Below are positions 4,467-63,813 of a DNA stretch of 64,000 nucleotides, piece after piece. Every line of letters starts with the position of its first letter. Within the stretch, counting starts at the first letter, position 1. Below the pieces are notes generated by a model. The model made no database searches. It worked only from the letters and a program-made list of their open reading frames with translations, and was not told where the DNA came from. Both the position numbers and the translations under genes were made by a program. The stretch is from Thermoanaerobaculia bacterium (GTDB lineage Bacteria > Acidobacteriota > Thermoanaerobaculia > Gp7-AA8): assembly GCA_036375075.1 (NCBI GenBank), contig DASUSN010000158.1:70791-134790 (forward strand). The letters are read 5' to 3'.

Positions 4467-4542
4467 AGGACGTATAGGACGAATAGGACGTATAGGACGA
4501 ATAGGACCGTCCTATACGTCCTATACGTCCTATTCGTCCTAT
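4467..4542. repeat. word-repeat palindrome, family A (ataggacg words), copy 1
   Basis: aggacgtataggacgaataggacgtataggacgaataggac-c-gtcctatacgtcctatacgtcctattcgtcctat. Arms are tandem 9-nt words and their reverse complements. Sits between convergent stops (4459 and 4539). Confidence 0.9.
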
Positions 4543-5252
4543 GGCTCCCGCCCTAACACCATCGTCGCCAGTGCCACCGCCACCCGCCGGTCCATCGTGT
4601 CGCTGGTCAGTTCCAGCACGTCCCCCGAGCGCCGTTGGATGCGCCCCACCTCCACGCCCCCGTAGGACAACACCACGTTCGTCTCGAACTTGCGGCTGAA
4701 CTTCCCGAGGAGCTTCCGCAGCACCGCGCCGGTGAACGAGTCTTCGCGCGCCTCGCCGAGGTAGCGGCCGTCGTGGGCGATCGTCCACTTGTTGCGGCCG
4801 AGGCGGGAGAGCACGGACTTGCGCAGCTCCGCGAGCTGCGCGCCGTTGGGGGTCGTCACCACGTACGTCGCCGAGGGGAACACCTTCCGCTGCGAGATCG
4901 TCAGGGCGGGGCGGTTCTCCTCGAACAGCGTCACCTCCACGCGCGGCACGAGCATCGCGATCAGCAGCGCGAACGCCACCGTCAGCACCGCGGCGATCAC
5001 CGCCCGCAGCGGCGCGCCCTGATAGACCAGCAGCAGCACGCCCGCCGCCCCCGCGGCGGCCACGATGGCCACCAGGAACGCGGCGATCACGCCGACGATG
5101 CTGGCGAAGCTGCGGTAGGTGAGGAGCACCTGGTCGTTCGCCCCGCGGATCGTCGCCGTCTCTCCCGCGCGCACCCCGGTCGTGAAGCGGTATTGCGTCG
5201 ACGCGAAGGCGCCGAGAGGGGGGAGGGGCTCGGTGTGCGGTTCGACCTCCAC
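4539..5252 (-). CDS. membrane protein, possible LURP-one/Tubby-C-like cytoplasmic domain
   Basis: Two central TM helices (IVGVIAAFLVAIVAAAGAAGVLLLV, AVIAAVLTVAFALLIAMLV). The C-terminal soluble domain resembles LOR/scramblase-like proteins only weakly, by eye. 5-nt gap to the upstream FHA gene. Confidence 0.5.
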   Translation of the reverse strand: MEVEPHTEPLPPLGAFASTQYRFTTGVRAGETATIRGANDQVLLTYRSFASIVGVIAAFLVAIVAAAGAAGVLLLVYQGAPLRAVIAAVLTVAFALLIAMLVPRVEVTLFEENRPALTISQRKVFPSATYVVTTPNGAQLAELRKSVLSRLGRNKWTIAHDGRYLGEAREDSFTGAVLRKLLGKFSRKFETNVVLSYGGVEVGRIQRRSGDVLELTSDTMDRRVAVALATMVLGREP

Positions 5253-5257
5253 GTCAG

Positions 5258-5737
5258 CTACTTTTTTTTTAACTCCGCGGGGTCGACCTGTTCGTGCGGG
5301 ACGGTGGAAAGGTTGACCCGCTCGATGGTGGCCGTCGGGTGAATGTCGAGGTTCCCCAGGTCTTCGGTCGGCGGCACGGGCTGATCGAACGGCTCCGCCG
5401 GGCCGTCCGGTGCCGCGGCCAGCGGCGCCGCATCCGCCTCGGTCGGCAGCTCCTCGGAGAAGCGCCCGTAGGTGTTGCCCATGCGCAGGCGGGCGCCGTG
5501 GGTCAGGGGGGCGACGCGAATGCGCTTGCCGTTGACGTAGGTGCCGTTCGCGCTCGCCAGGTCGTGCAGCACGAAGAAGCCGCGCTCGAACACGATCTCG
5601 GCGTGATGCCGCGAGACCTTCGGGTCGCGGAGGATGATGTCGTTGCCCGGATCGCGCCCGAGGGTGAACGGGCGATGCGTCTGGAGCCGGTAACTTTTCT
5701 CCGCGCCATCGAGGCCGACGAAGAAGATCTTGGCCAT
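5258..5737 (-). CDS. FHA domain-containing protein
   Basis: FTLGRDPGNDIILRDPKVSRHHAEIVFERGFFVLHDLASANGTYVNGKRI is a canonical FHA core (GR...S.HH...D..S.NGT.VNG). Confidence 0.85.
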   Translation of the reverse strand: MAKIFFVGLDGAEKSYRLQTHRPFTLGRDPGNDIILRDPKVSRHHAEIVFERGFFVLHDLASANGTYVNGKRIRVAPLTHGARLRMGNTYGRFSEELPTEADAAPLAAAPDGPAEPFDQPVPPTEDLGNLDIHPTATIERVNLSTVPHEQVDPAELKKK

Positions 5738-5774
5738 TCGGGGGCGGATTGTAAGCGCAGTGCCGCGGCCTTGG

Positions 5775-6149
5775 CTATTTAGCCGTCATGGTCGCGGGCG
5801 GCCGCGACATCTCCAGGACCAGCTCGTCCACCGTCAGCGGCTTGGTCAGCCAGGAGCGGACCCGCGAGGGAAGGGCGGGCGGTGCGGGCTGCCCGCTGAT
5901 GACGATGATCTCGATGTCCCTCGTGCCGTCCTGTCCTCCCAGGCGCTCGACGACTTCCCGGCCGTCCATCAGCGGCATCATCCAGTCCAGCAGGATGTAA
6001 TCCGGCCTCTCGGTGGCGACCCGGTCCACGGCCTCGGCCCCGTTCGCCGCCAGCTTGACCTCGAACCCTCTCTGGTTCAGCCCGATCGCGTACAGCCGCC
6101 GGACATCTGCGTTGTCTTCCACCAGCAGAACCTTCGGCTTGCCACCCAT
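5775..6149 (-). CDS. single-domain response regulator (CheY-like receiver)
   Basis: Real start ATG 6149 (MGGKPKVLLVEDN...ILLDWMMPLMDG...LTKP). The 472-aa track ORF is a 5' over-extension running antisense to pyrR/pyrB. Confidence 0.85.
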   Translation of the reverse strand: MGGKPKVLLVEDNADVRRLYAIGLNQRGFEVKLAANGAEAVDRVATERPDYILLDWMMPLMDGREVVERLGGQDGTRDIEIIVISGQPAPPALPSRVRSWLTKPLTVDELVLEMSRPPATMTAK

Positions 6150-6230
6150 GAAGGCCGGAAAAGTGCAGGGCGCCTGCCAACCGTCAATCCATCGTGCTAT
6201 TCTCCGCCCCGCCTGATCGGGCACTCCGTT

Positions 6231-6767
6231 ATGAATGTGAAAAAACGTTTGCTGGATGGCGCGCGGATGAACCGCGCGATCCGCCGTATGGCGATCGAAG
6301 TCGTGGAGAAGAACCGCGGGCTGGACGATCTGATGATCGTCGGGATCCGCAGCCGTGGCGTTCCCATCGGCGAGAGGATGACCGCGGAGATCGAGCAGAT
6401 GGAGGGACAGCCGGTTCCGTTCGGCATCCTCGACATCACGCTCTACCGCGACGACCTCACCACCATCGCCCCGAACCCGGTGGTCAAGCCGACGAAGTTC
6501 CCGGAGCCGATCAACGACAAGGTCATCGTCCTGGTCGACGACGTCCTCTACACCGGGCGCACCGTGCGCGCGGCGCTGGACGCGCTGATCGACTTCGGCC
6601 GGCCGAAGCGCGTGATGCTCGCCGTCCTCGTCGACCGCGGCCATCGCGAGCTGCCCATCCACGCCGACGTGATCGGCAAGACCGTCCCCACCGACGCCGA
6701 CGAAGTGATCAAGGTGAAGCTGGCGGAGACGGACGGCGAAGACGAAGTCTTGATCATGGAGAAATGA
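6231..6767 (+). CDS. pyrR: bifunctional pyr operon regulator / uracil phosphoribosyltransferase PyrR
   Basis: [28 protein letters not shown]...[12 protein letters not shown]...ITLYRDDL...[22 protein letters not shown]...RGHRELPI. PRTase motif and PyrR-typical N-terminus. Start ATG 6231, inside the longer track ORF. Confidence 0.9.
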
Positions 6768-6847
6768 AGTCGCCGAGCCTTCGCGTCGTCGAGTCTTCGA
6801 GGACCGCGAAGCTTCTCGACGACTTGACGACCCGGCGACTCGACGAC
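6768..6847. repeat. word-repeat palindrome, family B (tcgacgac / gaagactc words), copy 1
   Basis: Fills the whole pyrR-pyrB spacer: gtcgccgagccttcgcgtcgtcgagtcttcgagg...cttctcgacgacttgacgacccggcgactcgacgac. Imperfect inverted repeat sharing words with 13012-13069 and 26826-26978. Confidence 0.8.
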
Positions 6848-6849
6848 TG

Positions 6850-7800
6850 ATGCGCGCAACCACTTCCGCCCTCAAATCGAAGGATCTTCTCGGCATCGAG
6901 CCCCTCACTCCCGAAGAGATCGCCCTCATCCTCGACACGGCCGAGGGATTCAAGGAAGTGAGCGAGCGGCCGGTGAAAAAAGTGCCGGCGCTCCGCGGCC
7001 AGCTGGTCATCAATCTCTTCATGGAGGCGTCGACGCGCACGCGCGTGTCGTTCGAGATCGCGGAAAAACGCCTCTCCGCCGACACGCTCAACTTCTCGGC
7101 GTCCGGCTCCGCGGTGGAGAAGGGCGAGACCCTCATCGACACGGCCGACAACCTCGTGGCCATGCATCCGAACATGATCGTGATCCGGCACAAGCATCCC
7201 GGATCGCCGCAGATGCTGGCCGAGCGCTACCCGAACATCTCCGTGATCAACGCCGGCGACGGCGCGCACGAGCACCCCACGCAGGCCCTCCTCGACGCCT
7301 TCACCATCCGCGAGCGCCTCGGGCGCCTGAGCGGCGTGAACGTCTCGATCGTCGGCGACATCAAGTATTCGCGGGTGGTGCGCTCGAACATCCACCTGCT
7401 GACCAAGATGAAGGCGAACGTGACCCTCGCGGCGCCGCCGACGCTCATCCCGACGGAGATCGAGAAGCTCGGCGTGCGCGTGGTGCACTCGCTCGACGAG
7501 GCCATCGAGGACACGGACGTGATCATGATGCTGCGCATCCAGCTCGAGCGGCAGGGGAAGCTGAGCTTCCCGTCGCTGCGCGAGTACTACAACACCTTCG
7601 GCCTGACCCGCGAGCGCCTGCGCCGCGCGAAGAAGGGCGTGCTGGTCATGCACCCCGGCCCCATGAACCGCGGCGTGGAGATCGCATCCGACGTGGCGGA
7701 CGACCCGACGTACTCCGTGATCCTGGACCAGGTGACGAACGGCGTCGCCGTCCGGATGGCGGTGCTGTATCTCCTCGGCGGAGCGCACTCGGAAGGATGA
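6850..7800 (+). CDS. pyrB: aspartate carbamoyltransferase catalytic subunit
   Basis: STRTR motif ([11 protein letters not shown]), [18 protein letters not shown]. Length and gene order (pyrR-pyrB-pyrC) fit. Confidence 0.95.
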
Positions 7801-7822
7801 AGGCCGGAAGGACGAAGGCTGA

Positions 7823-9154
7823 ATGAATCTGCTCATCACCGGCGCGCGCGTCATCGACCCGAGCCAGGAGCTCGACGCAACGCTCGATCTTTTGATCGAG
7901 GACGGCGCGATTGCGAAGGCCGACAGGAAGATCAAGGCTCCCGCGGGCGTCGAGACCATCGACGCGAGCGGTCTGGTCGCGACGCCGGGCTTCATCGACC
8001 TGCACACGCACCTGCGCGAGCCGGGGCAGGAGCACAAGGAAACGATCGCCACCGGCACGCGTGCCGCGGTGGCGGGCGGCTATACGGCTGTCTGCGCCAT
8101 GGCCAACACCGTTCCGCCGAACGACGAGCGCGCGGTGACGGAGATGGTCGTCGCGGAAGCAGCGCGCAACGGCTGGTGCCGGGTGTATCCGGTCGGCGCG
8201 GTGAGCAAGGGCCTCAAGGGCGAAGAGCTGGCGGAGCTGGCGGAGCTGCGCGCGGCGGGCTGCGTCGCGGTGAGCGACGACGGCAAGCCGGTGTGGAACG
8301 CGCAGCTCATGCGCCGGGCGCTCGAGTACTGCTCGATGCTGGGGATGCCCGTCGTCGCGCACGAGGAAGATGCCAACCTGAACGAAGGCGGCGTCATGCA
8401 CGAGGGCTTCTACTCGACCCTCCTGGGCATGCGCGGCATCCCCGCGGCGTCCGAGGAGACGCTGGTGGCGCGGGACGTGATCCTGGCCAGGCTGACCGGC
8501 GCGCACGTGCACATCGCCCATCTGTCGACGGCCGGGGCGGTGGACGCCGTGCGCCGCGCCCGCGCGGAGGGGGTGAAGGTGACGTGTGAAGTCACGCCGC
8601 ACCACATCGCCCTCGGCGACGCCAGCGTGCAGTCGTTCTCGACGAACCTGAAGATGAACCCGCCGCTGCGCAGCGAGGAGCATCGCCAGGCCATCCTCGC
8701 GGGCATCGAGGACGGGACCGTGGACGCGATCGCCACCGACCACGCCCCGCACCATTTCGACGAGAAGAACGTGGAGTTCGACCTCGCCCCGTTCGGGGTG
8801 ATCGGCTTGGAGACGGCGTTCGCGGTCTGCTACGACCGGCTGGTGCGCACCAAAGTGATCGGCCTGCCGCGCCTGATCGAGCTGCTCTCCAGCGGCCCGG
8901 CCCGGGTCTTCGGCCTGCCGGGCGGCACGCTCCGCGCAGGAGCCCTGGGGGACGTGACGCTGATCGATCTCGACGCGCGGTACGAGGTGACGCGCGCCCT
9001 GTTCCTGTCGAAGGCCGCGAACTCACCGTTCGTGGGCGAGACGCTGCAGGGACGGGCGGTGACGACGATCGTCGGCGGCGTGGTGAGACACGACATTCGC
9101 GACCGTGCCGGAAGCGCGGACGCGGATTCGAAGAAACAGCGAAAACGAAAATGA
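7823..9154 (+). CDS. pyrC: dihydroorotase (amidohydrolase class I type)
   Basis: GFIDLHTHLREPG metal-binding HxH, ...ATDHAPHH..., about 440 aa, directly after pyrB. Confidence 0.9.
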   Translation: MNLLITGARVIDPSQELDATLDLLIEDGAIAKADRKIKAPAGVETIDASGLVATPGFIDLHTHLREPGQEHKETIATGTRAAVAGGYTAVCAMANTVPPNDERAVTEMVVAEAARNGWCRVYPVGAVSKGLKGEELAELAELRAAGCVAVSDDGKPVWNAQLMRRALEYCSMLGMPVVAHEEDANLNEGGVMHEGFYSTLLGMRGIPAASEETLVARDVILARLTGAHVHIAHLSTAGAVDAVRRARAEGVKVTCEVTPHHIALGDASVQSFSTNLKMNPPLRSEEHRQAILAGIEDGTVDAIATDHAPHHFDEKNVEFDLAPFGVIGLETAFAVCYDRLVRTKVIGLPRLIELLSSGPARVFGLPGGTLRAGALGDVTLIDLDARYEVTRALFLSKAANSPFVGETLQGRAVTTIVGGVVRHDIRDRAGSADADSKKQRKRK

Positions 9155-9528
9155 GGAAGCGCGTCGTGATCGTCGATGACTCCGCGTCCTATTGCGATCT
9201 CTGGTCGAACTTCATCCTGGAGCGCTACGCGGACGTCGCCAACATCGAGACTTACACCCACCCCTACGATGCCCTGCCGAAGATCGACGACTCCATCGAC
9301 CTCCTCATCGTCGACCTGGAGATGCCGGGCATGGACGGGAAGAAGTTCGTCGAGTACGCCCGCGCCAAGGGCCTCTCGCCCCGCCGCATCGTGGTGACGT
9401 CGTCCCACTCGGCCGACGTCCTCCACCAGCGTTTCCGCATCGGCGAGACCATCGCGGTGATCAACAAGACCGAGCCGAAACAGCAGGAGGCGTTCCTCAT
9501 GATCCTCGATTCGATCATGCGGAGGTAG
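9151..9528 (+). CDS. single-domain response regulator (receiver)
   Basis: VVIVDDS...LLIVDLEMPGMDG...VINKTEP. Start ATG overlaps the pyrC stop (ATGA). Confidence 0.8.
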   Translation: MRKRVVIVDDSASYCDLWSNFILERYADVANIETYTHPYDALPKIDDSIDLLIVDLEMPGMDGKKFVEYARAKGLSPRRIVVTSSHSADVLHQRFRIGETIAVINKTEPKQQEAFLMILDSIMRR

Positions 9529-9581
9529 TCCTGAGTAGGCCGGGCAGCACCCAGCACTGAGGACTCAGCACTCAGCACTTA

Positions 9582-9587
9582 TATAAT
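9582..9587 (+). promoter_or_regulatory. candidate -10 box (TATAAT) placed for a leaderless PilT transcript
   Basis: Perfect TATAAT in GC-rich DNA, 7 nt upstream of the GTG start at 9595. No Shine-Dalgarno sequence between them and no convincing -35. Confidence 0.3.
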
Positions 9588-9594
9588 CCCGGCC

Positions 9595-11046
9595 GTGACC
9601 GTCGCCCCCGAACCGCAAGCCCCGGCGTTCTCGTTGAACGACCTGCTGGTCTACATGTCCAAGCAGCAGGCGTCGGACCTTCATCTGAAGCCGATGCGGC
9701 CGCCGCTGGTGCGCGTGCAGGGGAAGCTGATCGCGGTCAAGACCGACCCTCTCAAGCCCGTCGACCTGGAGCGCATGCTGCTGCCGCTCCTGAACCGCGT
9801 GCAGAAGGAGAAGTTCGACCAGACGCAGTCGGTCGACTTCGGGTACGGCGTCCCGGGCGTGGCGCGGTTCCGCGCGAACATCTACATGCAGCGCGGCACG
9901 GTCGGCGCGGTCTTCCGCCGCATCCCCATCCAGGTCCAGACCATCGACGCGCTCGAGCTGCCGCTGGCCGTGCGCGACATGACCCAGATCCCGGATGGCC
10001 TGGTGCTCGTGACCGGCCCCACCGGCTCGGGCAAGTCGACGACGCTCGCGGCGATGATCACCGAGATCTGCGAGCACGAGCCGCTGCACATCGTCACCAT
10101 CGAGGACCCGATCGAGTTCCTCTTCCAGGACAAGGTCGCGGCGATCTCGCAGCGCGAGGTGGGCACGGACACGCCCACGTTCAAGGAAGCGCTCCGCAAC
10201 GCCATGCGCCAGGACCCGGACGTGATCATGGTCGGCGAGATGCGCGACGTGGAGACGATGCAGACCGTGCTCACCGCCGCGGAGACGGGCCACTTGGTCT
10301 TCTCCACGCTGCACACGAACAACGCCGCGCAGACGCTGGACCGCATCATCGACGCTTTTCCGCCCGACCAGCACAAGCAGATCCGCTCGCAGCTCTCGCT
10401 CGTGCTGCGCGGCGTGATCTCGCTCAAGCTGGTCAAGACTACCTCGGGGAAGATGACCGCGGCGGTGGAGGTCCTCAAGGCCTCGCCGCGCGTGGCCAAG
10501 CTGATCGAGGAGGGCCACACCAAGGACCTGCTCGAGGAGATCGAGTCGTCGGTCGGCCTCTATCGCATGCAGTCGATGAATCAGTCGCTCATCGCCCTGC
10601 TCGTGCATCAGAAGATCACCTATGCCGACGCCATGGAGCTGTCGAGCGATCCCGACGACCTTTCACTCAAGCTCCGCAAGCTCTTCCCGCAGATCGAAGA
10701 GCGCGTCCGCCAGGGAGGAGACATGGCCCCCAGTTACTCCGATTTTTCGCAGATCACCGAGCTGATGGACATCAAGCGGCTCTACGAAGAGCAGGAAGTC
10801 CAGTGGCGCCAGCGCCTCGGCGACAAGGACGAGCAGCTCGAAGGCCTGCGCCACGACGTCGACTACCTCCGTGCCCAGGTCGCCCAGGCCGCCGGCGGCG
10901 ACAAGCAGAAGGACGAGGAGATCGCCCGCCTCCGCGGCGAGTCCGAGCGTCTCCGCGCCGACGCCCAGGCCAAGATCACCCAGCTCCAGGAGCGCATCAA
11001 GGAGCTGAACCAGAAGCTCATGGCCGTAACCCCCCAGAAGCGATGA
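9595..11046 (+). CDS. pilT: type IV pilus retraction ATPase PilT-like, with long C-terminal coiled-coil extension
   Basis: ASDLHL, Walker [21 protein letters not shown], Asp/His boxes ([24 protein letters not shown]). About 125 extra C-terminal residues are heptad-rich (…[35 protein letters not shown]). Confidence 0.85.
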
Positions 11047-11396
11047 CCACCCGACCGACCAGACAGCTCGAGACCTTCGCCAACCCCAACCCCCAGCGCG
11101 ACTACGAGATCGCGTTCGAGGCGCCGGAGTTCACCTGCCTCTGCCCCATGACCGGCCAGCCCGACTTCGCCACCATCCGCATCCGCTACGTGCCGGACGT
11201 GAAGTGCGTGGAGCTGAAGTCGTTGAAGTTGTACCTGTGGTCCTACCGCGACGAAGGCACCTTCCACGAGGCGGTGACCAACCGCATCGCGGACGACCTG
11301 ATCGCCGCGATCGACCCGCGGTACCTGATGGTGGAGGGGGACTTTTACGTTCGTGGCGGGATCTCCACGAAGGTGAAGGTGGAGCACCGGAAATAG
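11043..11396 (+). CDS. queF: NADPH-dependent 7-cyano-7-deazaguanine (preQ0) reductase
   Basis: [23 protein letters not shown]...[13 protein letters not shown]...FHE: QueF type I signature. ATG 11043 overlaps the pilT stop (ATGA). The track ORF from 10803 is over-extended. Confidence 0.9.
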
Positions 11397-11478
11397 GACG
11401 TATAGGACGAATAGGACCTATAGGACGAATAGGACGTCCTATGGGTCCTATACGTCCTATTCGTCTTATACGTCCTAC
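11394..11478. repeat. word-repeat palindrome, family A, copy 2
   Basis: ataggacgtataggacgaataggacctataggacgaataggac|gtcctatgggtcctatacgtcctattcgtcttatacgtcct. Between convergent queF and the 11478 gene. Confidence 0.9.
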
Positions 11479-12413
11479 TACACCCGCCGCAGGCGCCACT
11501 GCTCGTTCACGAACTCCAGGAACGCGGCAGACCCGCTGCCCAGCCACTCCGTCAACATCTCCACGCTCGTCTCGTCGACGCCCCCGATGATCGACAGGCT
11601 TGCCGACTCCGCCACCCGCGTGAGCGGTTTGTCCAGCTCGGCGATGGTGCGGGCCGATCGGGCGATGACGCCGGCGAGGTCGAGGTCGAGCTCCAACGCG
11701 ATCATGCGGGACGCCACCAGCGTCAGGAGCACGGCGGCGTTCCAGTTGGTGGGCGCGGGCCAGCGTGGAGGGAGGATGAAGTCGGCCATGCCGCGCTCGG
11801 CCGCCAGGGCCGCGATGTGGCGCTCGGTGGCGAGCTGGATGGGGCCGAGGTCGGAGTGGAAGAGCATGGCGTAGAGGTCGTCGTCGACGGGCAGCGTCTG
11901 GGCGATGGCCTGCTTCGCGGTGGGCTCGGCGTCGATGGGGATGGCGGCGAAGAACGACGCACCGGCGTCGCGGGCGGAGTCGGCGAGCGACTCGAGGAGC
12001 GCGGGATCCGTGGTGAGCGGAAAGAGCACGGGCACGGCGATGCCGAAACGGTCCGCGTCCGACAGGCGCACCACCGAGCCCTCGGACGTGAGGATCTGCG
12101 CGGCGAGTCCCTGCTCGTCGCACCACGCCAGCGCCTCGGCCCCGCGGCGGAACACGTCTTCCGCGTTTTCGGCGGCGTCGATCAGCACCGGGGCGGCGAT
12201 CGCGCGCGCGCGGTCGAGCTCATCGCGCACGTTCTCGGTCACCGTGACTTCCAGCTTCTCCGCGCCGCTGGCGCGCAGCTCGGCGTAGTCGATGGCGATC
12301 GGCGTCGCGCGGCGCGCGGCGTAGGGGGCAATCACCGTCGCGGACCAGAACGGGGCCGCGGGCGCCGACGCGCGGCGCACCCGGAGCTGCGGCGCTTTCT
12401 TGTACAGGATCAC
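11478..12413 (-). CDS. hypothetical protein (311 aa)
   Basis: GTG 12413 overlaps the ribE stop (GTGA). The 531-aa track ORF is an out-of-frame extension over ribE. No motif recognised. Confidence 0.55.
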   Translation of the reverse strand: MILYKKAPQLRVRRASAPAAPFWSATVIAPYAARRATPIAIDYAELRASGAEKLEVTVTENVRDELDRARAIAAPVLIDAAENAEDVFRRGAEALAWCDEQGLAAQILTSEGSVVRLSDADRFGIAVPVLFPLTTDPALLESLADSARDAGASFFAAIPIDAEPTAKQAIAQTLPVDDDLYAMLFHSDLGPIQLATERHIAALAAERGMADFILPPRWPAPTNWNAAVLLTLVASRMIALELDLDLAGVIARSARTIAELDKPLTRVAESASLSIIGGVDETSVEMLTEWLGSGSAAFLEFVNEQWRLRRV

Positions 12414-13006: not shown

Positions 13007-13011
13007 GTCGT

Positions 13012-14125: not shown

Positions 14126-14143
14126 GAGCGGATTGTAGTGGTC

Positions 14144-16311: not shown

Positions 16312-16330
16312 TCTGGTATCTTCGCCCGCC

Positions 16331-55262: not shown

Positions 55263-55316
55263 CGCCTCTGTTCTCTCTTTCGTAGAGAATGCTGCTTTCC
55301 TGTGAGACAGCGTTGG

Positions 55317-56604: not shown

Positions 56605-56669
56605 GGAAGCCTCCTATGGAAAAGCGGTTCGCCATCGGGCGATGGCGAACCGCGGTACGGTGGGGAGCT

Positions 56670-57710
56670 TCAGGGAGTGTCGACCCGCGTCGGCGGGCAG
56701 ATGGTGCGGTCGTACAGCGAGCGGCCGGCGTCCATGCGCAGGCGGTTGAGCAGCTCGGAGTAGACCGCCGTCGTCGGATGGACCGTCGACCAGCTCACCT
56801 GCGGCACGGTCGTGCCGCTCGGCGCGCCGGCGCGCGGCACCAGCCGCGTCTCGCGCGCGGGCGGGCTGTCCAGCAGCTCGTAGTACATCTCGAAGTGCTT
56901 GCCGACCTGCGGCGCGTTGTTGTTCGACGACGCCGGCGGAACGAACGGCGGCAGGTTGATGACGGCGATCTCCACCTGGCCGGAAGAGTCGGGTGTGAGG
57001 GTCATCGAGCGGCCGGTGCTGTTGTCGTGCTTCGTCTCGACGAGCTGGATGCTGCTGCCGGGGACCTCGATGTCGACGCCGACCCAGCTGCTCACGGCCT
57101 GGACGTACGCCGACGTGTTGCCGGTGCCGTCGAGGCGCTTGAAGTGCACGGGCGTGACGTCGCTGCCGAGGCGCGCGACACTGAAGGTGGAGAGCTCGCC
57201 GCTGTCGATGGTGAAGCGCGCGGCCACGATGGACGGCGGCACGGCGTCGAAGACGTCGGAGTCCAGCGTGCAGCCGCTGCCGCAGAGGTCCGAAAGGCTG
57301 GCGATCCAGGAGAAGTCGCCGCGCTGTGTGGACGTCGTCGGGATGACGTCCGTGCCGCGGACGCCGTCGACGATGTTCAGTGCGGGCAGGTTGCCGCCCT
57401 GGACCGTGAGGTCCGAGCCGGAGATCAGCCACGCGCTGCCGTTGCCGAGGGCGTCGGCGAGGGAGTCGAGGGCGACGGAGGGGGACTGATCGCGGAAGCT
57501 GAAGCCGGCGATCGTGGCATTGTTGGTCACGCAACTGCCGCTGCAGCCGCCGGCGCGGACATAGACGATCGGCGTGTGCGCCTGCATGGCGGCGCCGTCG
57601 GACGTGTGGTGCTGGTCGGCATTGAGGAGCAGGACGGTCACTTCCGTCCCGTTCTCATTGGGAACGAAGGCCATCAGGCCGGTGAAGAGAATCTTTGCGA
57701 TGAAGCTCAC
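56670..57710 (-). CDS. hypothetical protein (346 aa) with two CxxxC pairs, overlapping the CHAT gene 3' end
   Basis: AGGAGG 8-9 nt upstream of GTG 57710 (alternative ATG 57674), giving a 56-nt (or 20-nt) overlap with the upstream CHAT ORF. Hydrophobic N-terminus SFIAKILFTGLMAFV. GGCSGSC and LCGSGC. No family recognised. Confidence 0.5.
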   Translation of the reverse strand: MSFIAKILFTGLMAFVPNENGTEVTVLLLNADQHHTSDGAAMQAHTPIVYVRAGGCSGSCVTNNATIAGFSFRDQSPSVALDSLADALGNGSAWLISGSDLTVQGGNLPALNIVDGVRGTDVIPTTSTQRGDFSWIASLSDLCGSGCTLDSDVFDAVPPSIVAARFTIDSGELSTFSVARLGSDVTPVHFKRLDGTGNTSAYVQAVSSWVGVDIEVPGSSIQLVETKHDNSTGRSMTLTPDSSGQVEIAVINLPPFVPPASSNNNAPQVGKHFEMYYELLDSPPARETRLVPRAGAPSGTTVPQVSWSTVHPTTAVYSELLNRLRMDAGRSLYDRTICPPTRVDTP

Positions 57711-60651
57711 TGTGTTTTTCCTCCTGTGCGGTGCGTGGTGCGTAAGGCGAGTCCGCATAGCCGACCGCCTGGAATGCCGCCCACGCTCTCGCGGGTCGTT
57801 TGTCCCGGAGCATTTCGAGCTGCGCCTTCCGGAGCGCAACTGCCACCTCGTCTCCGTTCCGATAGTGACGATGAAAAGACACCAGCAACTCGCGAGTTGT
57901 GGCGCTGTCCTTCACGTCCCATAACGTACCGACGACGGCCGGAACCCCGGCCGCAATGAGCGGCCGGACTAGAGGAGCGAGACCTTCGGGCCCGATGGAT
58001 TCTCCGGACGCGGTGCTGCACGCGGCGAGCACGATGAGGCGCGTCTGGCTGAGGACCTCTGGCCGGGTGAGGAGTCGTTCTGCAGTGAGATCGCCCGAGC
58101 TGTTTCCCTCCGGAGCGAGAATGAGTCTCGACAGCCACGGGTCGTATGGGTTCGCGACTGCGTGACCGGCGAAATGGATGATGGTGGCGTTTCTGGCGGC
58201 GGTGAGGAATCGCTTGATGGATGCCTCATCGCCGAGAAGAAGGTCGGAGCCGGGGTATTCAGCGTGAAGTTGTCGCGCCTCGGCGGCTGCATTTGCGAGT
58301 TGCTGCAACTGGGACGTATCGGCAAGAGCGGGATCGCCGACGATGAGCACACTCGGGTCGCCGCCGCGAGAAAACTGTCGGTCGCGGAGCGTTGAGTACA
58401 GATAAAGCGACGTACTGCCTGCGACGGCGATGCTGCGGCGAGCGATGACGTATCCCTCTTTCTGGCTCTCCAGAGCAGCGAAGGGAAGCCCGTGCATGGG
58501 GCCGTCGGGGACGATGACGACCCGGCGGTGTCGCAAGCCCGCGAGCGGCGTGCTGAAGAGTCCATCGTACACGGCACGCATCGTCGTTGCCGGAACGTTC
58601 TGACCGGCGATGATCGCCGTATGGATGTTCTCGACCCAGGTGCGGATTGCTGTGCGGCCGACGCCGTGCTGGAACGGAATGATGCCCTCTCGCGAAAGGG
58701 CCCAGGAGTACGTCTTGTCCTCCAGAACCAGATACTGAAGGATCAGCGTGTCTTCCGGAATCGCCGCACGCATCTGTTCCAAAGCAGCCATGCTGTCGAT
58801 TCTCCGGAAGCCGGACGGCATCGAAGCCGTCTGCAGGAGGAGTTGCAGCGGCTCGAAGCCGCGCGCCTGTTCTGCATAGAGGAACGCACCCTGGACGTCC
58901 TTCTGCCGGACATGGCGCTCGATCATTTCGTGATGCAGCGACTGGAAGCGGGAGAAGTAAGGTTTCCAGAGAGCTTCGTAGTGGCCGCGCGTAGTCATGT
59001 TGCGTAGCTGGATTGCTTCGTCCCGCAGCAGCGCCAGCGCCGTGGCCAGGTCATCGTTCGACTCGGGAGCTGTTCCGCGGGCCAGTCCTCGTTTGTAGTA
59101 GAGATGTGCACGATAACTGGCGTATTCATTCGGAGCGCGCTCGATGGCTTCGGTGAAGTGTTGAACTGCTTCGGGGAGCCGGCCCTTCGCGAACGCTTGA
59201 TGGCCTCTCACCTCGGAAAGACGCATGTTGAGCAGTGGAAGGTACGCGGAATCCGCTGCTTTTGCGGACTCCGTGGCCTCCACAAGATCGCCTTCGGCCA
59301 GTGCGTCGTGACCGAGTGCGATATGAATGTCGGCACGCTCCCGGAGAGCGATAGCGTAGTGATGCTTCGCGTCCTGAATCTCGTCCGCAGATGCGTGGGT
59401 GATCGCTCTCTGAATTAGCTCGACGCCAGCGTTCTGAAACTGGAGCGCAATGGCCGGAAAGCCCAGGTCACGCGCTGCTCTGGCGGCGGCGGCGTACCCT
59501 TGATGGATAGCATCTAGGTCCGTAACACCGGAAAGAAGAGGTAACACGGCTAAGGCGTCGCGGAACGCCTCTTCGAATCTGCCAATCGTGCTGTAGTTGA
59601 AGGTTCGGCGGCTCAGGATTTGTGCTTTGCGGGTGGATGATTCGTTGAGCGCGAATGCCTGGTCATATGCCTGCAAGGCTTCGAAATATCGAGATTGCCC
59701 TTCCAGCGCGACGGCTCGCAGAATACACGTGCGGGTCGCGAGGTCCCGGTAGCCGTTGTCTAAGGCCACCGAAATGATTGGCTCGAGTAGGGACAGGCAG
59801 TCGCCTCCTGAACGGAACACCTCTCCTGCGGCTTTTTGGCGAGCGAGGAGCTGAAGGGGATTTCGCGCGTGTTCGAGCAGCTCGGCGGCTTGCGTGTATC
59901 TGGCTTGCTGAAGAGCCGTCACACCCTTCTCGAAAGCGGAGCGGTCGTGCGTTCGCGAAGCGGCGTCCACGACCGCGCGTGCGAACGGATCATCAAACAC
60001 ACCGGCGAGTAACCTCGCCTTCGGGAGGTCGATCAGAGCGGAGGTCTCGAAATAGTCCATCGCCTCTTTGGGGAAGGCCCGAGCGAGGCGGCGAGCTTCT
60101 AATGTGTCCCCGCGTTCGAGGGCGGCAGCCATCTTTTCGGAGCTCCAGCGGGGCGGCACGGCCTGCACCCGCTCGAGGTGCTTTCGCGCCTCCGACTTCC
60201 ATGCCGGTGCGTCGTGCTGCAGGACCTCACTCCACGAGTGCTGTGCCTCGCGGGTGAGACCGAATTGCTGCTGAATGAGCGCGCGATTGAAACGGGCAGC
60301 GTCGGATTGCGACTTCAATGCTGCATCCAGCGCACGCAGCATGCTCACGGGGTCGTTTTTCCGTCGCGAGCGAATGAAGAACGCCGCGGCGAGATCCTCT
60401 TTAGAGTGCTTGCTGACTGCGGCTACAGCTCGATCGAGACAGTCGCCGTTCGCGCGGACCAATAGCGCGATTGCCTGATCGCGGGTCTCGATCTTTTCGT
60501 CGCACGAGGCGCGTACCTCATTCCATTCCAGCCGCGGCTCGACCGTACGCCACTTTTTGACGGCATTGGTGTCTGCTCCATCGTTACAACCCGCGACTGC
60601 GCCGCAGAGGATCGCAACAAAAGCCATGGCAACGAAAAAGAGTCTCTTCAC
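57655..60651 (-). CDS. TPR-repeat CHAT-domain lipoprotein (caspase-fold protease) (P4)
   Basis: GTG 60651 gives (M)KRLFFVAMAFVAILCGAVAGC, a lipoprotein signal. Long helical-repeat region (ALQAYDQAFAL, AIALQFQNAGVEL, ...). C-terminal CHAT: VVIVPDGPMHGLPFAAL, IIHFAGHAV (His), LIVLAACSTASGE (Cys), WAAFQAVG. Confidence 0.8.
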   Translation of the reverse strand: MKRLFFVAMAFVAILCGAVAGCNDGADTNAVKKWRTVEPRLEWNEVRASCDEKIETRDQAIALLVRANGDCLDRAVAAVSKHSKEDLAAAFFIRSRRKNDPVSMLRALDAALKSQSDAARFNRALIQQQFGLTREAQHSWSEVLQHDAPAWKSEARKHLERVQAVPPRWSSEKMAAALERGDTLEARRLARAFPKEAMDYFETSALIDLPKARLLAGVFDDPFARAVVDAASRTHDRSAFEKGVTALQQARYTQAAELLEHARNPLQLLARQKAAGEVFRSGGDCLSLLEPIISVALDNGYRDLATRTCILRAVALEGQSRYFEALQAYDQAFALNESSTRKAQILSRRTFNYSTIGRFEEAFRDALAVLPLLSGVTDLDAIHQGYAAAARAARDLGFPAIALQFQNAGVELIQRAITHASADEIQDAKHHYAIALRERADIHIALGHDALAEGDLVEATESAKAADSAYLPLLNMRLSEVRGHQAFAKGRLPEAVQHFTEAIERAPNEYASYRAHLYYKRGLARGTAPESNDDLATALALLRDEAIQLRNMTTRGHYEALWKPYFSRFQSLHHEMIERHVRQKDVQGAFLYAEQARGFEPLQLLLQTASMPSGFRRIDSMAALEQMRAAIPEDTLILQYLVLEDKTYSWALSREGIIPFQHGVGRTAIRTWVENIHTAIIAGQNVPATTMRAVYDGLFSTPLAGLRHRRVVIVPDGPMHGLPFAALESQKEGYVIARRSIAVAGSTSLYLYSTLRDRQFSRGGDPSVLIVGDPALADTSQLQQLANAAAEARQLHAEYPGSDLLLGDEASIKRFLTAARNATIIHFAGHAVANPYDPWLSRLILAPEGNSSGDLTAERLLTRPEVLSQTRLIVLAACSTASGESIGPEGLAPLVRPLIAAGVPAVVGTLWDVKDSATTRELLVSFHRHYRNGDEVAVALRKAQLEMLRDKRPARAWAAFQAVGYADSPYAPRTAQEEKHSELHRKDSLHRPDGLRSQ

Positions 60652-60683
60652 GCTTTCATAAGATACGCGGTTCGCGAGAATGG

Positions 60684-61256
60684 ATGCGAGCAATGACGAT
60701 GCGAAGCAAGGGCGGTGGCAGTGACGATCTGTTTCGGTCCCTGTATGACCGCTATTCCGCGCGCATGTTGCGGTTTTTCCGGACGGTCTTCCGTGTCTCC
60801 GATGCGGAAGCGCAGGAGCTGACGCACGACTCGTTCCTACGGTTCTACCGGACCATGCACGAATACCGCGGCGAAGCCGAATGGGCGTTGCTCGAGACCA
60901 TCGCGCGGAACGTGGGATACAACCGGGTGCGCTCGCTGACGACCATCAAGCGTGGTGCGGTGCGTCCGGAGTCGCTCGACGACACGGAGTCTTCTCGAAA
61001 GGATCCGGTGGCTGTGCAGCAGCACCCGCTGGATCGCATGATCGACGCGGAGCGCAGGACGCGCCTTCGCCGGGAAATGGCCGCTTTGCCGAAAGGGCAG
61101 AGGCAGTGCCTGCAGTTATGGCTGGATGACTGGAGCTACGAAGACATTGCGACGACGCTGCGCATCTCTGTCGACGCGGTGAAATCGCGCCTCCGCGATG
61201 CACGGCGGCTGTTGCGCGAACGACTGGGAGACGAAGGCGTGCTCCCGGAGGAATGA
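60684..61256 (+). CDS. ECF-type RNA polymerase sigma factor (sigma-2)
   Basis: Region 2 EAQELTHDSFLRFYRTM...LLETIARNVGYN. Region 4 LWLDDWSYEDIATTLRISVDAVKSRLRDAR. In-frame alternative starts at 60693 and 60699. Confidence 0.85.
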   Translation: MRAMTMRSKGGGSDDLFRSLYDRYSARMLRFFRTVFRVSDAEAQELTHDSFLRFYRTMHEYRGEAEWALLETIARNVGYNRVRSLTTIKRGAVRPESLDDTESSRKDPVAVQQHPLDRMIDAERRTRLRREMAALPKGQRQCLQLWLDDWSYEDIATTLRISVDAVKSRLRDARRLLRERLGDEGVLPEE

Positions 61257-62045: not shown

Positions 62046-62047
62046 CA

Positions 62048-62079
62048 ATGCCCGTGACCCTCACGGCGGTCACGGGCAT
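62048..62079 (+). terminator. hairpin immediately after the anti-sigma-2 stop
   Basis: atgcccgtgacc-ctcacggc-ggtcacgggcat: perfect 12-bp stem starting 3 nt after the stop, with only a weak T-run (aaattctt). Confidence 0.5.
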
Positions 62080-62134
62080 CGCAAATTCTTGCGCCAGGCC
62101 GAACGCCAGCGCGGTACCCCGTGTTTAGCCCTCC

Positions 62135-62605
62135 ATGAACGACGAGAAAGCACTTCGCGAACACCTGGTGCGCCTGCTGGACTGGGACAGCGCGCACGTC
62201 CGATTCGATGATGCGGTGAAGGATTTTCCGGTGGAACTGCGCGGCACGCGGCCGGCCGGGGCGCCGCATTCGCCGTGGGAATTGCTCGAGCATCTGCGTA
62301 TCGCGCTGTGGGACATCCTGGAGTTCTCCCGCGACGGGAAGCACGAGTCGCCGGAGTTTCCCGCGGGGTATTGGCCGGCCGCGCAGGCGCCGCCGTCCGA
62401 GGGGGCGTGGGAGGAGAGCGCGGAGCAGTACCGGCGGGATTTACGGGCGCTGGCGGAGCTGACGGCGGACGAGTCGGCCGACCTCTACGCGCCGATCCCG
62501 CACGGGAGCGGGCAGACGCTGCTGCGCGAGATCCTCGTGGCGGCCGACCACAACGCGTATCACGTCGGCCAGCTCATGATGGTCCGCCGCATCCTCGGCG
62601 CCTGA
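62135..62605 (+). CDS. DinB-family (four-helix-bundle metalloenzyme-like) protein
   Basis: ...SPWELLEHLRIALWDIL...LLREILVAADHNAYHVGQLMMVRRIL carries the His triad pattern typical of the DinB superfamily. Confidence 0.75.
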   Translation: MNDEKALREHLVRLLDWDSAHVRFDDAVKDFPVELRGTRPAGAPHSPWELLEHLRIALWDILEFSRDGKHESPEFPAGYWPAAQAPPSEGAWEESAEQYRRDLRALAELTADESADLYAPIPHGSGQTLLREILVAADHNAYHVGQLMMVRRILGA

Positions 62606-63726
62606 ACGTCGGGGAAGGAACCGCGGGCGAAGAATACGTGCTCGGCGAGGCGCTGGAAGAGCGGCAGGCGCAGCATGGCGAACGCGGTCTCGAGCAGCGG
62701 CGGCGCGGCGGACGCGAGGCGCATGGCGTTGCGCATCCAGCGGCGGGCGAGGATGCGGGTGCGGAAGCGGTCGCCGGTGTATTGGGCGAGCACGGCCGGG
62801 TCGCCGGTCTCGAGGTAGGCGGCGATGACGTCGGCGGCGAAGGTGGAGAGGCGCATCGCGCCGTCGAGGCCTCCGGCGGTGAGGGGGGAGACGGCGCCGG
62901 CCGCATCGCCGATGAGGAGGCCTCGTTCGTTGGCGATGCGGCGGAGGATGCCGTTGACGGGAATCAGTCCGCCGCGGCGCTCGAGGGTGCGGCCGACAGC
63001 GAAGGGGAGGGTGTCGCGAAAGGTGTGCAGCGCTTTCGTGGCGTCCCAGCCTCCGCGCTGGTAGCCGGCGACGCCGACGTGCGCCTCTTCGCCGTCGTTC
63101 GCCACCCAGGCGATGTAGCCGGGCGCGAGGCGGGAGTCGAGGAAGCAGTGCAGCACGGGCTCGCGGGAGATGGGCGGGACGATCTCTTCCACGCCGAGGA
63201 GCATCTCGTGGTTGCGGTCGAGTCCGAGGTGCTGGGCGATGCGGGAGCGGGCGCCGTCGGCGCCGACGACGAAGCGCGCGCGCAGGCGCTCGCGGCGGCC
63301 GTGGCGGAGGAACGTCACGCCGTCCGCGTCGCACGACTCGACGCGGGCGCCGGGGATCCACTGCACGCCGGCGCTGGCGCACTGCTCGAGCATCTGGAGG
63401 TAGAGCCAGGACATCCGCCCGACGCGGAACTCGTCGCGGGCGGCGCGGATGTGCAGCGACTTGCGCGCCGGTGAATAGAGCACCACGTCGCGGATCGCGG
63501 GCCCCAACTGCTCCTCGGGCAGCGGGAAGTCTTCCCACGTCTTGCGCACGAAGATCCCGGTGGTGTGCACGGGCGCGGCGATGGAGGGCTTGCGGTCGAG
63601 CAGGGCGACGCGCAGCCCGCGCGCGGCCAGCAGGCGGGCCAGGCGGAGGCCGGCAAGGCCGGCGCCGATGATGGCGACGTCGGACGAGGGCGCAGGGGAC
63701 AGGGCGCGGGGCGCAGTGGATTGCAT
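62560..63726 (-). CDS. FAD-dependent oxidoreductase, geranylgeranyl-reductase-like family
   Basis: ATG 63726 (MQSTAPRALSPAPSSDVAIIGAGLAGLRLARLLAARG). GDAAGAVSPLTAGGL. The 3' end convergently overlaps the DinB gene by 46 nt. Confidence 0.8.
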   Translation of the reverse strand: MQSTAPRALSPAPSSDVAIIGAGLAGLRLARLLAARGLRVALLDRKPSIAAPVHTTGIFVRKTWEDFPLPEEQLGPAIRDVVLYSPARKSLHIRAARDEFRVGRMSWLYLQMLEQCASAGVQWIPGARVESCDADGVTFLRHGRRERLRARFVVGADGARSRIAQHLGLDRNHEMLLGVEEIVPPISREPVLHCFLDSRLAPGYIAWVANDGEEAHVGVAGYQRGGWDATKALHTFRDTLPFAVGRTLERRGGLIPVNGILRRIANERGLLIGDAAGAVSPLTAGGLDGAMRLSTFAADVIAAYLETGDPAVLAQYTGDRFRTRILARRWMRNAMRLASAAPPLLETAFAMLRLPLFQRLAEHVFFARGSFPDVQAPRMRRTIMSWPT

Positions 63727-63813
63727 GACGAGAACTTTACAATGCAAAGCACGTGCGCACAAGTCCGCGACGATCGCGGGTCTCCTGTCCCCTGTCCCCT
63801 GCCCCCTGCGCCC
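63688..63813. repeat. word-repeat palindrome, family E, copy 2 (wide loop)
   Basis: Left arm gggcgcaggggacagggcgcggggcgc (63688-63714, inside the first codons of the FAD gene). Right arm ctcctgtcccctgtcccctgccccctgcgccc (63782-63813), abutting the fabF stop. Confidence 0.8.
63734..63762 (-). promoter_or_regulatory. candidate sigma-70-like promoter giving a leaderless transcript of the FAD oxidoreductase gene
   Basis: On the minus strand: TTGTGC - 17 nt - TAAAGT - 7 nt - ATG (63726). No SD. The whole promoter sits in the loop of the family E palindrome. Confidence 0.3.

Follow-up and report, generated by a model that had tools for sequence, protein, structure and literature searches.

Tandem-word hairpins behind stop codons in Thermoanaerobaculia and their turnover between related genomes

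A 64,000-nt stretch of a Thermoanaerobaculia genome (assembly GCA_036375075.1, contig DASUSN010000158.1, positions 70,791 to 134,790), called the window throughout, carries intergenic hairpins whose arms consist of tandem copies of a short word on one side and of its reverse complement on the other. We found that these word hairpins are gained, lost, and replaced at gene junctions on a time scale that separates species of about 90% protein identity, that the number of words changes in one-word steps, and that the niche of the elements lies a few nucleotides after a stop codon, with about 24 nt kept free before the next start codon. A reading to which we give roughly an even chance is that word hairpins are dispersed palindromic repeats like repetitive extragenic palindromic sequences (REPs) and their hairpin-forming doublets (REPINs), shaped by word slippage, by templating of one arm on the other, and by homogenisation between copies, and tolerated behind stop codons.

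Word hairpins exceed chance and are enriched in one clade

A first-pass annotation, read from the letters of the window, had described elements of this design in families A to H. All 17 listed elements are indeed inverted repeats. Folded alone with RNAfold, each formed one dominant hairpin, with a folding free energy (dG) between -20.3 kcal/mol (C4) and -185.7 kcal/mol (F1); B2 was weak, at -22 to -27 kcal/mol. An independent inverted-repeat search of the window gave arms of 24 to 60 nt with 72 to 97% complementarity, and Tandem Repeats Finder recovered the word periods in both arms. The tandem-word design held for families A, B, C, D, E, and H, with periods of 9, 8, 8 to 9, 9 to 10, 7, and 7 nt, respectively. 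It did not hold for F1, F2, and G, which are nested unique palindromes on the motif GTCATYCYGAGCG and lack tandem words. About 18 elements lie in the 64 kb, with two to four copies per family.

A hairpin detector requiring at least 18 matched bp in the stem and a loop of at most 100 nt returned 15 long hairpins in the window, 7 of them with strongly periodic arms. In 30 dinucleotide-preserving shuffles the mean was 0.40 hairpins, none was periodic, and the longest stem had 21 bp. The occurrence of word hairpins is confirmed and lies far beyond chance. A search of the whole window against Rfam 15 gave no family at gathering score, and a tRNA scan of the window found none, hence no tRNA-linked island.

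The dihydroorotase (DHOase) encoded at 7823-9154 has best matches of 82 to 93% identity, and all of the named ones come from uncultured Thermoanaerobaculia or from Acidobacteriota metagenome-assembled genomes. We collected syntenic loci by homologue look-up (L001 to L003, L204, and L205) and by one scan of species-representative genomes (L004 to L083). Loci with a DHOase 66 to 93% identical to that of the window form the in-group (511 kb including the window), and loci from other Acidobacteriota classes form the out-group (874 kb). The in-group contained 131 long hairpins, 68 of them periodic (13.3 word hairpins per 100 kb), and the out-group 48, with 9 periodic (1.0 per 100 kb). The out-group cases, from Pyrinomonadaceae and Vicinamibacterales, look genuine; the design is therefore enriched in the Thermoanaerobaculia clade and not confined to it.

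In the median, a word hairpin spans 86 nt, with a 29-bp stem, a 22-nt loop, and -55 kcal/mol as its dG; spans range from 50 to 153 nt and stems from 18 to 56 matched bp. The period was 7 nt in 46 of the 68, 14 in 4, 8 in 10, 9 in 7, and 10 in 1, and a search for periods 5 and 6 among the word hairpins of the clade found none. Within the window, E and H alone are heptameric, A to D having periods of 8 to 10 nt. At least 20 different words coexist in the clade. In a strict 12-mer test, 85 of 133 intergenic arrays had a reverse-complement array at most 200 nt away.

Word hairpins lie directly behind stop codons

Using a gene map based on codon usage for the window and the in-group loci, we found 121 of the 131 long hairpins of the in-group to be intergenic, though intergenic DNA accounts for 12.8% of the bases. 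The first-pass statement that most elements begin within 0 to 10 nt of a stop codon was borne out. Measured over the window and 32 related loci, word hairpins lie a median of 3 nt from the adjoining stop codon; of 67, 27 contain that codon and another 24 sit 1 to 10 nt away from it. From the adjoining start codon the median is 24 nt.

Elements of the window occupy 7 of its 10 convergent, 8 of its 31 co-directional, and 2 of its 10 divergent gaps. A position between convergent or co-directional genes, as first described, therefore applies to 15 of the 17 elements and not to E1 and C3, which lie in divergent gaps. In the in-group as a whole, 35 of 65 convergent gaps held a long hairpin, as did 69 of 332 co-directional ones and 17 of 68 divergent ones; word hairpins were present in 11, 45, and 11 of these gaps, respectively. 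The proposal that the elements punctuate operon boundaries finds no support: many are inside operons (pyrB-pyrC, RR-T2SSE, and an ABC transporter) and some are 5' of both neighbours; the pyrB-pyrC junction that they enter is a 4-nt ATGA overlap in eight relatives.

Stop triplets are unevenly distributed between the arms of word hairpins: 30 elements have them in the 5' arm alone and 10 in the 3' arm alone (p = 0.002). Closure of all three frames is seen in 17 of the 5' arms and in 3 of the 3' arms, and the corresponding counts of stop triplets in non-periodic hairpins are 12 versus 13. Since an element reads alike in both directions, a word that contains a stop closes every frame to genes on either side that run into it. 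The enrichment in 5' arms fits a filter on which insertions survive beside or inside gene ends. We dropped a backup stop codon as the general rationale, as stops are absent or nearly so from families B, C, D, and E.

Orthologous junctions are filled, emptied, and refilled

The pyrB-pyrC junction illustrates the turnover. Eight relatives have a 4-nt overlap, GAATGAAC, at this place, several others, the window included, have a gap of 5 to 36 nt, and 13 relatives have a hairpin of about 100 nt. At least nine different words are found there overall: AATTGAA, GTTGGCG, AAATGCA, GGTCGGA, GAATGTT, GAACGCA/GAAGAAT, GTTCCTCGG, GAATTTG, and CGAATTT. L014 has a one-arm remnant at this site.

Between the window, L001, L204, and L205, whose DHOases are 91 to 93% identical, almost every gap contains a different family or nothing. 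At pyrB>pyrC the window has no element, L001 has GTTGGCG, L204 has GCAGAGSG, and L205 has AATTGAA. At RR>T2SSE the window has a decayed GAGTSCT element, and the other three have GAGTGCT, GATGAAG, and AGAGAAAAG, in the same order. At pyrR>pyrB the window has B1, L001 a 40-bp stem without words, L204 an ATGA overlap, and L205 a gap of 22 nt. At the divergent RR<>pyrR gap an empty site and a filled one can be compared cleanly, L001 having about 110 extra nt between CCTGCCAAC and GTGCTAT.

Several listed elements have equally varied counterparts. The orthologue of A1 in L001 (6170-6301) is again of family A, with 61-nt arms and variant words, and the A2 site in L205 carries an unrelated GC-rich hairpin without words. 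The site orthologous to B2 has (AGTCTCAG)4 in L003, (AGTCTCAA)4 in L205, and a mixed array in L031. The decayed GAGTSCT element at 9526-9580 corresponds to intact hairpins in L001 and L002 and to other word families in L204 and L205. The family H word also fills the pyrB-pyrC junction of L003, L004, L022, L031, and L205. The comparison of orthologous intergenic regions that had been suggested for these elements thus finds sites that switch between filled, empty, and other-family states.

At RR>T2SSE, a TATAAT follows the hairpin directly in all four close relatives (window 9572-9580, L001 near 11672, L204 near 5172, and L205 near 5497), and the hairpin family differs in each of them despite the conserved TATAAT. 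This TATAAT may be a -10 element, with the changing right arm occupying the -35 region.

Arms and dispersed copies evolve in concert

The families are discrete and multi-copy, and copies of one family recur at unrelated places. C1 and C3 differ at 6 of 110 positions, their unique 44-nt core included, and one of the differences is a compensatory pair (A/C with T/G). Their likeness is bounded sharply at CCTCCGTCCC...GGGACGGAGG, outside which the flanks are unrelated. Word families are also common to several genomes at non-orthologous sites. Variant words are specific to a genome and common to separate loci within it, such as GGGTGCT in L001 (8024 and 11593) and GAGTACT in L017 (8190 and 15417), and A1 and A2 have an 18-nt T/A alternation in common.

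The two arms of an element mirror each other word by word. Heterogeneous words keep their order in the opposite arm, as in L002 at 8253 (GCT, GCT, CCT, CCT) and in L017 at 15417 (GCT, ACT, GCT, ACT), where 31 of 31 positions agree. Over 50 elements, in-register mismatches between the arms numbered 134, compared with 237 +/- 12 after permutation of the word order, and none of 2000 permutations reached 134. A variant word in L001 (11593) and in L015 (8928) is offset by exactly one word from its counterpart in the other arm, the trace expected of slippage. The B2-orthologous site shows a single substitution carried by all words of the two arms (AGTCTCAG in L003, AGTCTCAA in L205).

Arrays with a single arm also occur. 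At the L020 site orthologous to A1 (6140-6400), about 27 copies of the family D word, GTTCCTCGGR, stand without an adjacent reverse-complement arm; this array could be a real expansion or an assembly artefact. L014 has a one-armed GCGTTCT x3. L028 contains, at 18945-20166, four tandem units of about 290 nt, each a TCTGRAGT array with a 250-nt core that includes an F-like motif, closed by one reverse-complement array, an arrangement like that of bacterial interspersed mosaic elements (BIMEs).

In all six copies of family H (the window and five relatives), the 3' arm is a perfect (TTTTCAA)4, and variants (ATGG, GAG, and CTG) are confined to the 5' arm.

Terminators, RNA stems, and possible selection at cistron ends

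The elements had been proposed to act as bidirectional terminators or as mRNA-stabilising hairpins. The terminator proposal finds no support. Canonical terminators of the window, with a GC stem and a T-tract, lie elsewhere (2182-2214 on the plus strand; 14105-14073 and 15854-15834 on the minus strand), and none coincides with a word hairpin. A consensus terminator scan of positions 1-20000 gave 23 terminator-like sites with no word hairpin among them. U-tracts are rare: 10 of 67 word hairpins have 5 or more T (A at the opposite end) within the next 9 nt, which agrees with the first-pass remark that they are mostly absent.

A stem that is selected as RNA should tolerate G:U pairs and reject A:C mismatches. 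We oriented 69 hairpins of co-directional gaps to the mRNA and counted their stem mismatches. There was no excess of G:U over A:C on the mRNA strand (49 versus 41, p = 0.46), and word hairpins alone gave 33 versus 23. This symmetry suggests that pairing is kept by a strand-symmetric process at the DNA level or by recent copying. The mRNA-stabiliser idea gets no support from it, and an RNA effect is compatible with it: a transcript is certain to form a stem of 30 to 50 bp that lies 3 nt behind a stop codon.

Word hairpins might still be selected RNA elements at cistron ends, acting as exonuclease barriers, as terminators or insulators independent of a U-tract, or as modulators of translation, with only the stem mattering and the sequence free to vary. 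We consider this possible but unlikely. The tight placement between stop and start codons would be expected from it, as would the long hairpins in 35 of the 65 convergent gaps of the clade, the excess of stop triplets in 5' arms, and pairing that is kept while the sequence changes. Family H stands between the genes for the substrate-binding protein and the permease of an ABC transporter, the same arrangement as that of the REP between malE and malF of E. coli, and at RR>T2SSE all four close relatives have some hairpin, always just before the conserved TATAAT. Against such selection speak the missing G:U bias, the word hairpins in divergent gaps (E1 and C3 among them), the insertions into a pyrB-pyrC junction that is overlapped in eight relatives and only sometimes occupied, and the lack of U-tracts in a genome with ordinary terminators elsewhere. 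Stems of 29 to 56 bp are far beyond the need of an exonuclease block or a terminator, and family C also exists as single arms unable to fold.

Possible birth of words in place

Alternatively, nothing moves: slippage would amplify a junction sequence and template switching would copy the opposite arm, giving each locus its own word. Some words do resemble their surroundings. Those at pyrB-pyrC are AT-rich like the GAATGAAC overlap that they replace, the GAAGAAT array of L019 contains GAATGAA, and the CGCTGA(G/A) flank at RR>T2SSE runs into GCTGAGT in L001 and into GATGAAG in L204. The one-armed arrays of L020 and L014, the one-word shifts of variants between arms, and the orthologous elements that differ by a single substitution swept through all words are of the kind that such growth would produce. 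We nevertheless judge birth in place quite unlikely as the whole explanation. It does not account for the unique 44-nt core and sharp ends that C1 and C3 have in common at unrelated loci, for identical patterns of word variants at loci 3 to 7 kb apart in one genome, or for the same word at different sites in different genomes (families H and D, and GAGTSCT). Independent births would also not yield the unit (CTCTGTG)n-GGTGAA, which is conserved across Thermoanaerobaculia, Terriglobia, Nostocales, and phage contigs.

Family C crosses phyla

The reach of this family C unit, in full (CTCTGTG-N1-2)n followed by GGTGAA, emerged from a scan of JGI metagenomes with the pattern CTCTGTG-N0-2-TCTCTGTGGTGAA, which gave at least 120 contigs; 80 loci were analysed. 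The unit forms 33 hairpins with GGTGAA at the outer ends and 8 with GGTGAA at the inner ends, as in the window, and 46 of the 92 matches listed belong to no hairpin. With its outer and inner pairs and its singletons, family C parallels REP singletons and their head-head and tail-tail dimers. Family C loci among the matches listed have a GC content of 36 to 75%, and genomes with the unit range from 32 to 75% GC. Exact-protein look-ups assigned L142 (GC 36%) to Rivularia/Calothrix (Nostocales cyanobacteria) and L138 to Terriglobia; the unit is also present in L069 and L016, two loci whose taxonomy is known. Among IMG/VR contigs, 62 contain the family C unit, 14 the GAGTSCT array, and 4 family A. 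The presence of family C in several phyla is hard to square with purely local birth and speaks for its horizontal spread or for a conserved partner by which the word or the tag is recognised.

One IMG/VR phage fragment with a Mu F-like head protein (L230) carries three plus three inverted tandem units of 153 nt at 3600-4020 and 6390-6720. Each unit contains one whole family C hairpin, whose loop has 3 nt, with a CAAAGACGC/CAAGGACGC word pair ahead of it. No parent transposon was found here: the DNA between the two sets of units holds the Mu F-like head gene and two open reading frames (ORFs) without a Pfam match, and no transposase domain. Arrays with their reverse complement 0.2 to 20 kb away proved to be separate junction elements round housekeeping genes (for example 16491 and 19925 in L014, at htrA and pfk).

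The arrays could instead be sites for a conserved factor acting in trans, such as an oligomeric protein that binds single-stranded nucleic acid or a templated "rewriting" enzyme, with one word per subunit or per word-length template. In its favour, 7 nt is the dominant period (50 of 68 with period 14 included) and periods 5 and 6 are absent, one specific unit is conserved across phyla in genomes of 32 to 75% GC, and genome-specific variants are common to separate loci with differing loops. We think such a factor very unlikely, as no candidate protein was identified, the 20 or more words of the clade would need many factors or a very tolerant one, and gene conversion among repeats explains the homogenisation within a genome without a new factor.

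A broader version of this idea posits an undescribed and widespread system, in which a conserved factor recognises or templates mostly 7-nt words, installs mirror arrays behind stop codons, and keeps each family identical within a genome. Its probability, to our mind, is low. If it existed, it would account for the 7-nt period, for genome-specific variants at loci with unrelated loops, for the re-occupation of junctions, and for a (CTCTGTG)n-GGTGAA unit that is conserved between Acidobacteriota, Nostocales, and phages. It would, moreover, link the short tandemly repeated repetitive (STRR) sequences of cyanobacteria, the GGGAATC arrays of Xanthomonas, and the TAACTGA repeats of Beggiatoaceae.

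Integron attC sites, a CRISPR array, and a PyrR attenuator were dropped, since the elements are flanked by syntenic housekeeping genes and lack spacers, and since each relative has a different element at the pyr junctions.

Word hairpins as proposed dispersed repeats tolerated behind stop codons

If word hairpins are dispersed repeats of the REP kind, copies would spread or homogenise one another by a strand-symmetric process at the DNA level. Candidates are hairpin-templated strand switching or quasi-palindrome correction together with replication slippage, combined with gene conversion or with a putative trans-acting enzyme. Most copies would persist because a hairpin directly behind a stop codon does little harm. 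Where transcribed, an element would place a stem of -40 to -100 kcal/mol at the 3' end of the upstream cistron, and such a stem could act as an exonuclease barrier, as an RNase III target, or as an obstacle to ribosomes near the stop codon, either as a side effect or by secondary co-option; the existence of the elements would have another cause.

Several observations weigh against this account. The related loci are nearly all one syntenic neighbourhood in many genomes, so that the in-group counts are not independent genome samples. Re-occupation of the same junctions in different genomes could equally mean that a hairpin is selected there. The likeness of some words to the local junction sequence (GAATGAA at pyrB/pyrC and GAAGAAT in L019; the CTGAG/CTGAA flank at RR>T2SSE) hints at birth in place and not at insertion. 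As had been noted at first, neither a transposase nor target-site duplications accompany the elements. The flanks of C1, C3, C4, A1, and A2 contain no direct repeat, the elements have no conserved insertion motif, and the ATGA that flanks the pyrB-pyrC inserts on either side has to be there in any case if stop and start codons are to be preserved. Pfam searches of 18 of the approximately 52 window genes found no transposase, the genes being housekeeping genes, a giant adhesin-like gene, and a cluster of caspase, CHAT, and ECF-sigma genes. No gene recurs next to family C; at most 4 of the 80 listed loci have any ORF family in common. The RAYT-like (Y1) propagator suggested at first was not found: a phmmer search with E. 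coli RayT gave no match at E <= 10 among the ORFs of about 1.9 Mb of related loci, where a single-copy gene elsewhere in the genome is possible, and none at the same threshold among the ORFs of the viral loci. A database search with RayT returned only Enterobacteriaceae among the best 120 matches.

For more than 30 years, intergenic heptamer repeats have been on record without a mechanism, and this clade is an unusually rich system in which to study them: it has dozens of word families in the form of mirror hairpins, turnover at about 90% identity, arms and loci that evolve in concert, and at least one unit found across phyla and in phages. The elements open the questions of whether strand switching, gene conversion, or an enzyme spreads and homogenises them, and whether a very long stem 0 to 10 nt behind a stop codon affects translation termination, mRNA decay, or convergent transcription. 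In practice, they generate spurious low-complexity ORFs and probably break Acidobacteriota metagenome assemblies.

Elements and neighbouring features of the window

The elements are listed in Table 1. One of them, a ninth family of GAGTSCT heptamers, had been missed by the first-pass annotation.

Table 1. Hairpin elements of the window, with dG in kcal/mol; (-) marks genes on the minus strand.
Element	Position	Structure	dG	Setting
A1	4467-4542	Family A; word ATAGGACG(W), period 9, super-period 18 nt	-54	Fills convergent gap between SpoIID/SPOR gene (stop 4459) and gene 4539-5252 (-)
A2	11394-11478	Family A; 42-nt arms, no loop	-60.5	Convergent gap; first TAG is the stop codon of a QueF-like gene
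B1	6768-6847	Family B; degenerate 8-nt words GAGTCKTC / GACGACTC	-43	Whole pyrR-pyrB gap
B2	13012-13069	Family B; weak hairpin	-22 to -27	Between two (-) riboflavin genes
B3	26826-26978	Family B, large; left (GAGTCTTC)3-4, right about 9 GAAGACTC/GACGACTC words	-81	Co-directional gap, upstream of aldo-keto reductase/aldehyde dehydrogenase fusion gene
C1	29591-29700	Family C; CCTCCGTCCC stem base, 3 CTCTGTG, GGTGAA tag, unique core, mirror image	-95	Convergent gap
C2	43391-43494	Divergent family C copy; period 9	-76	Between two (-) genes
C3	48615-48724	Family C; near-identical to C1	-97.5	509-nt divergent gap upstream of ankyrin-repeat gene
C4	46704-46728	Family C footprint; remaining stem base only, CTCCGTCCCAC / GTGGGACGGAG	-20.3	
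D1	37113-37222	Family D; word GTTCCTCGG(R), period 9-10	-83.5	Co-directional gap
D2	42784-42870	Family D	-61	Starts directly behind TAG stop codon; right arm covers last ~14 codons of called convergent gene 42827-43381 (-)
E1	16213-16311	Family E; heptamers CAGGGGA/CAGGGCG	-72.5	Divergent gap, 5' of both neighbour genes
E2	63688-63813	Family E; arms around ~90-nt loop	-73	Between two (-) genes
F1	17401-17633	Inverted pair of motif TGTCATCCCGAGCGTCGAGCGAGGGAC (REPIN-like), then second GC-rich hairpin	-186	Convergent gap
F2	49426-49474	Lone F motif arm without partner		At start of 710-nt non-coding stretch
G	40278-40401	Unique long palindrome, not a word hairpin; F-like motif TCCTGAGCGAAGCG twice	-77	Co-directional gap
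H	33212-33304	Family H; (AAATTGA)4 ... (TTTTCAA)4; 33% GC in a 67% GC genome	-44	Between substrate-binding and permease genes of ABC transporter
Ninth family	9526-9580	Decayed GAGTSCT heptamer element (GAGTCCT/CAGCACT); left arm truncated, right arm ~5 CAGCACT		RR>T2SSE junction

Read directly against C1, the interior of C4 is deleted between CAC microhomologies. The D1 word recurs in L020, both in the one-armed array described above and at the pyrB-pyrC junction. In the window itself, the last pyrB codons and the 22-nt spacer before pyrC (7790-7819) consist of GGAAGGA/GAAGGC repeats, like the GAAGGCA words of L008 and L030, and may be the remnant of an arm absorbed into the coding end.

Besides word hairpins, the clade has a second and distinct class of repeat, the motif GTCATYCYGAGCG...CGAGGRAYC of families F and G. 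It lies in the window at 17458, 17532-17558 (reverse complement), and 49427, and in L005, L014, L020, L024, and L028; there are 9 copies in in-group loci, none in the 874 kb of other Acidobacteriota, and 3 in metagenome contigs. It sometimes adjoins word arrays (L014 at 16523; the cores of L028). Directly after F2, positions 49477-49762 hold 6.6 tandem copies of a 43-nt unit, GGAGGTCAACACTGAGGGAGGCGACCCTCAAATTTGGCCGGCG, with 93% matches, and the same 710-nt non-coding stretch has two hairpins without words (49840-49908 and 49921-50063). Rfam gave only sub-threshold chance matches on 49380-50130.

A giant ORF at 17644-26988 (-), of up to 3114 aa, has internal tandem repeats of 417, 348, and 360 nt and the look of an adhesin or of Ig-like repeats; its true start probably lies further in, as its first ~160 nt overlap B3. 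A cluster of lower GC content at 50115-61256 (61 to 62% in 58 to 62 kb) contains no word hairpins. It encodes an ECF sigma factor, a 1012-aa TPR-CHAT protein, and three proteins with a caspase domain (Peptidase_C14), of which one also has a PQQ/BamB-like domain, and may be a conflict or programmed-cell-death module.

Comparison with known repeat systems

Intrinsic terminators consist of a GC-rich stem of about 5 to 14 bp followed by a U-tract. Like them, word hairpins are stem-loops directly downstream of a stop codon; unlike them, they lack a U-tract, have stems three to five times longer, and occur in divergent and intra-operon gaps as well. With MITEs (miniature transposable elements with inverted repeats), word hairpins have in common that they are short, non-coding, dispersed, hairpin-forming, and present or absent between relatives, but no target-site duplication and no parent insertion sequence (IS) with matching ends was seen. 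The GGTGAA tag of family C, which can lie at either the outer or the inner arm end, is a misfit with the terminal inverted repeats of MITEs, which are read by a transposase.

A REP unit is an imperfect palindrome of 20 to 40 nt, and REPs have been proposed to act at mRNA 3' ends. They carry a conserved GTAG or CGTC tag and often abut or supply stop codons (PMC3733652), and REPs and REPINs form sequence populations within a genome (PMC3116915). Word hairpins resemble them in being extragenic (121 of 131), in comprising several families, in having family C pairs in both orientations next to singletons, and in behaving as populations. They differ in that a single arm is a direct tandem array and not self-complementary, so that single family C arms do not fold, and in that no GTAG or CGTC tag was seen at their ends, which were read by eye; family C has GGTGAA, and CGTC is found inside every family A word. 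The first-pass comparison with REPs and BIMEs therefore stands for family behaviour and position and is wrong, or at any rate lacks support, for terminators and operon boundaries.

Heptamer repeats of the STRR type were reportedly described in cyanobacteria by Mazel et al. in 1990. Direct TAACTGA repeats occur in Beggiatoaceae, Cyanobacteria, and Bacteroidetes, with 169 direct sets and one inverted set in Beggiatoa, and sit just upstream of start codons (PMC4679880). Word hairpins are likewise intergenic tandem heptamers of patchy cross-phylum distribution and unknown function, and the family C unit is present in a Rivularia/Calothrix contig. The arrays of STRR and TAACTGA are direct, whereas those described here are inverted, and TAACTGA stands before start codons, whereas word hairpins stand behind stop codons.

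The closest precedent is the GGGAATC heptamer of Xanthomonas. X. campestris and X. axonopodis have about 185 such arrays per genome, of which 70 to 75 are convergent inverted pairs (Rehm et al. 2015, PLoS One, PMC4692102). These arrays are 89 to 93% intergenic, with a mean distance of 28 nt to the ORF upstream and of 160 nt to the one downstream. Sister species differ in array length. The arrays are transcribed, show no link to IS elements, are of unknown function, and were treated as G-quadruplex formers (PMC4692102). Word hairpins share the inverted tandem heptamer arrays (50 of 68 with period 7 or 14), the intergenic position, and the closeness to the upstream ORF. Xanthomonas has one G-rich word, whereas at least 20 unrelated words, one of 33% GC, are found here, and that account of Xanthomonas contains no mirror order of variants, no concerted evolution of loci, no replacement of families at a site, and no unit spread over phyla. 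Full-text searches of the literature for multi-family word hairpins in Acidobacteriota and for the sequence of family C gave no description of either. Word hairpins belong to a known but poorly understood kind of repeat, to which our analysis adds many words per genome, mirror order, concerted evolution, rapid replacement, and units that cross phyla.

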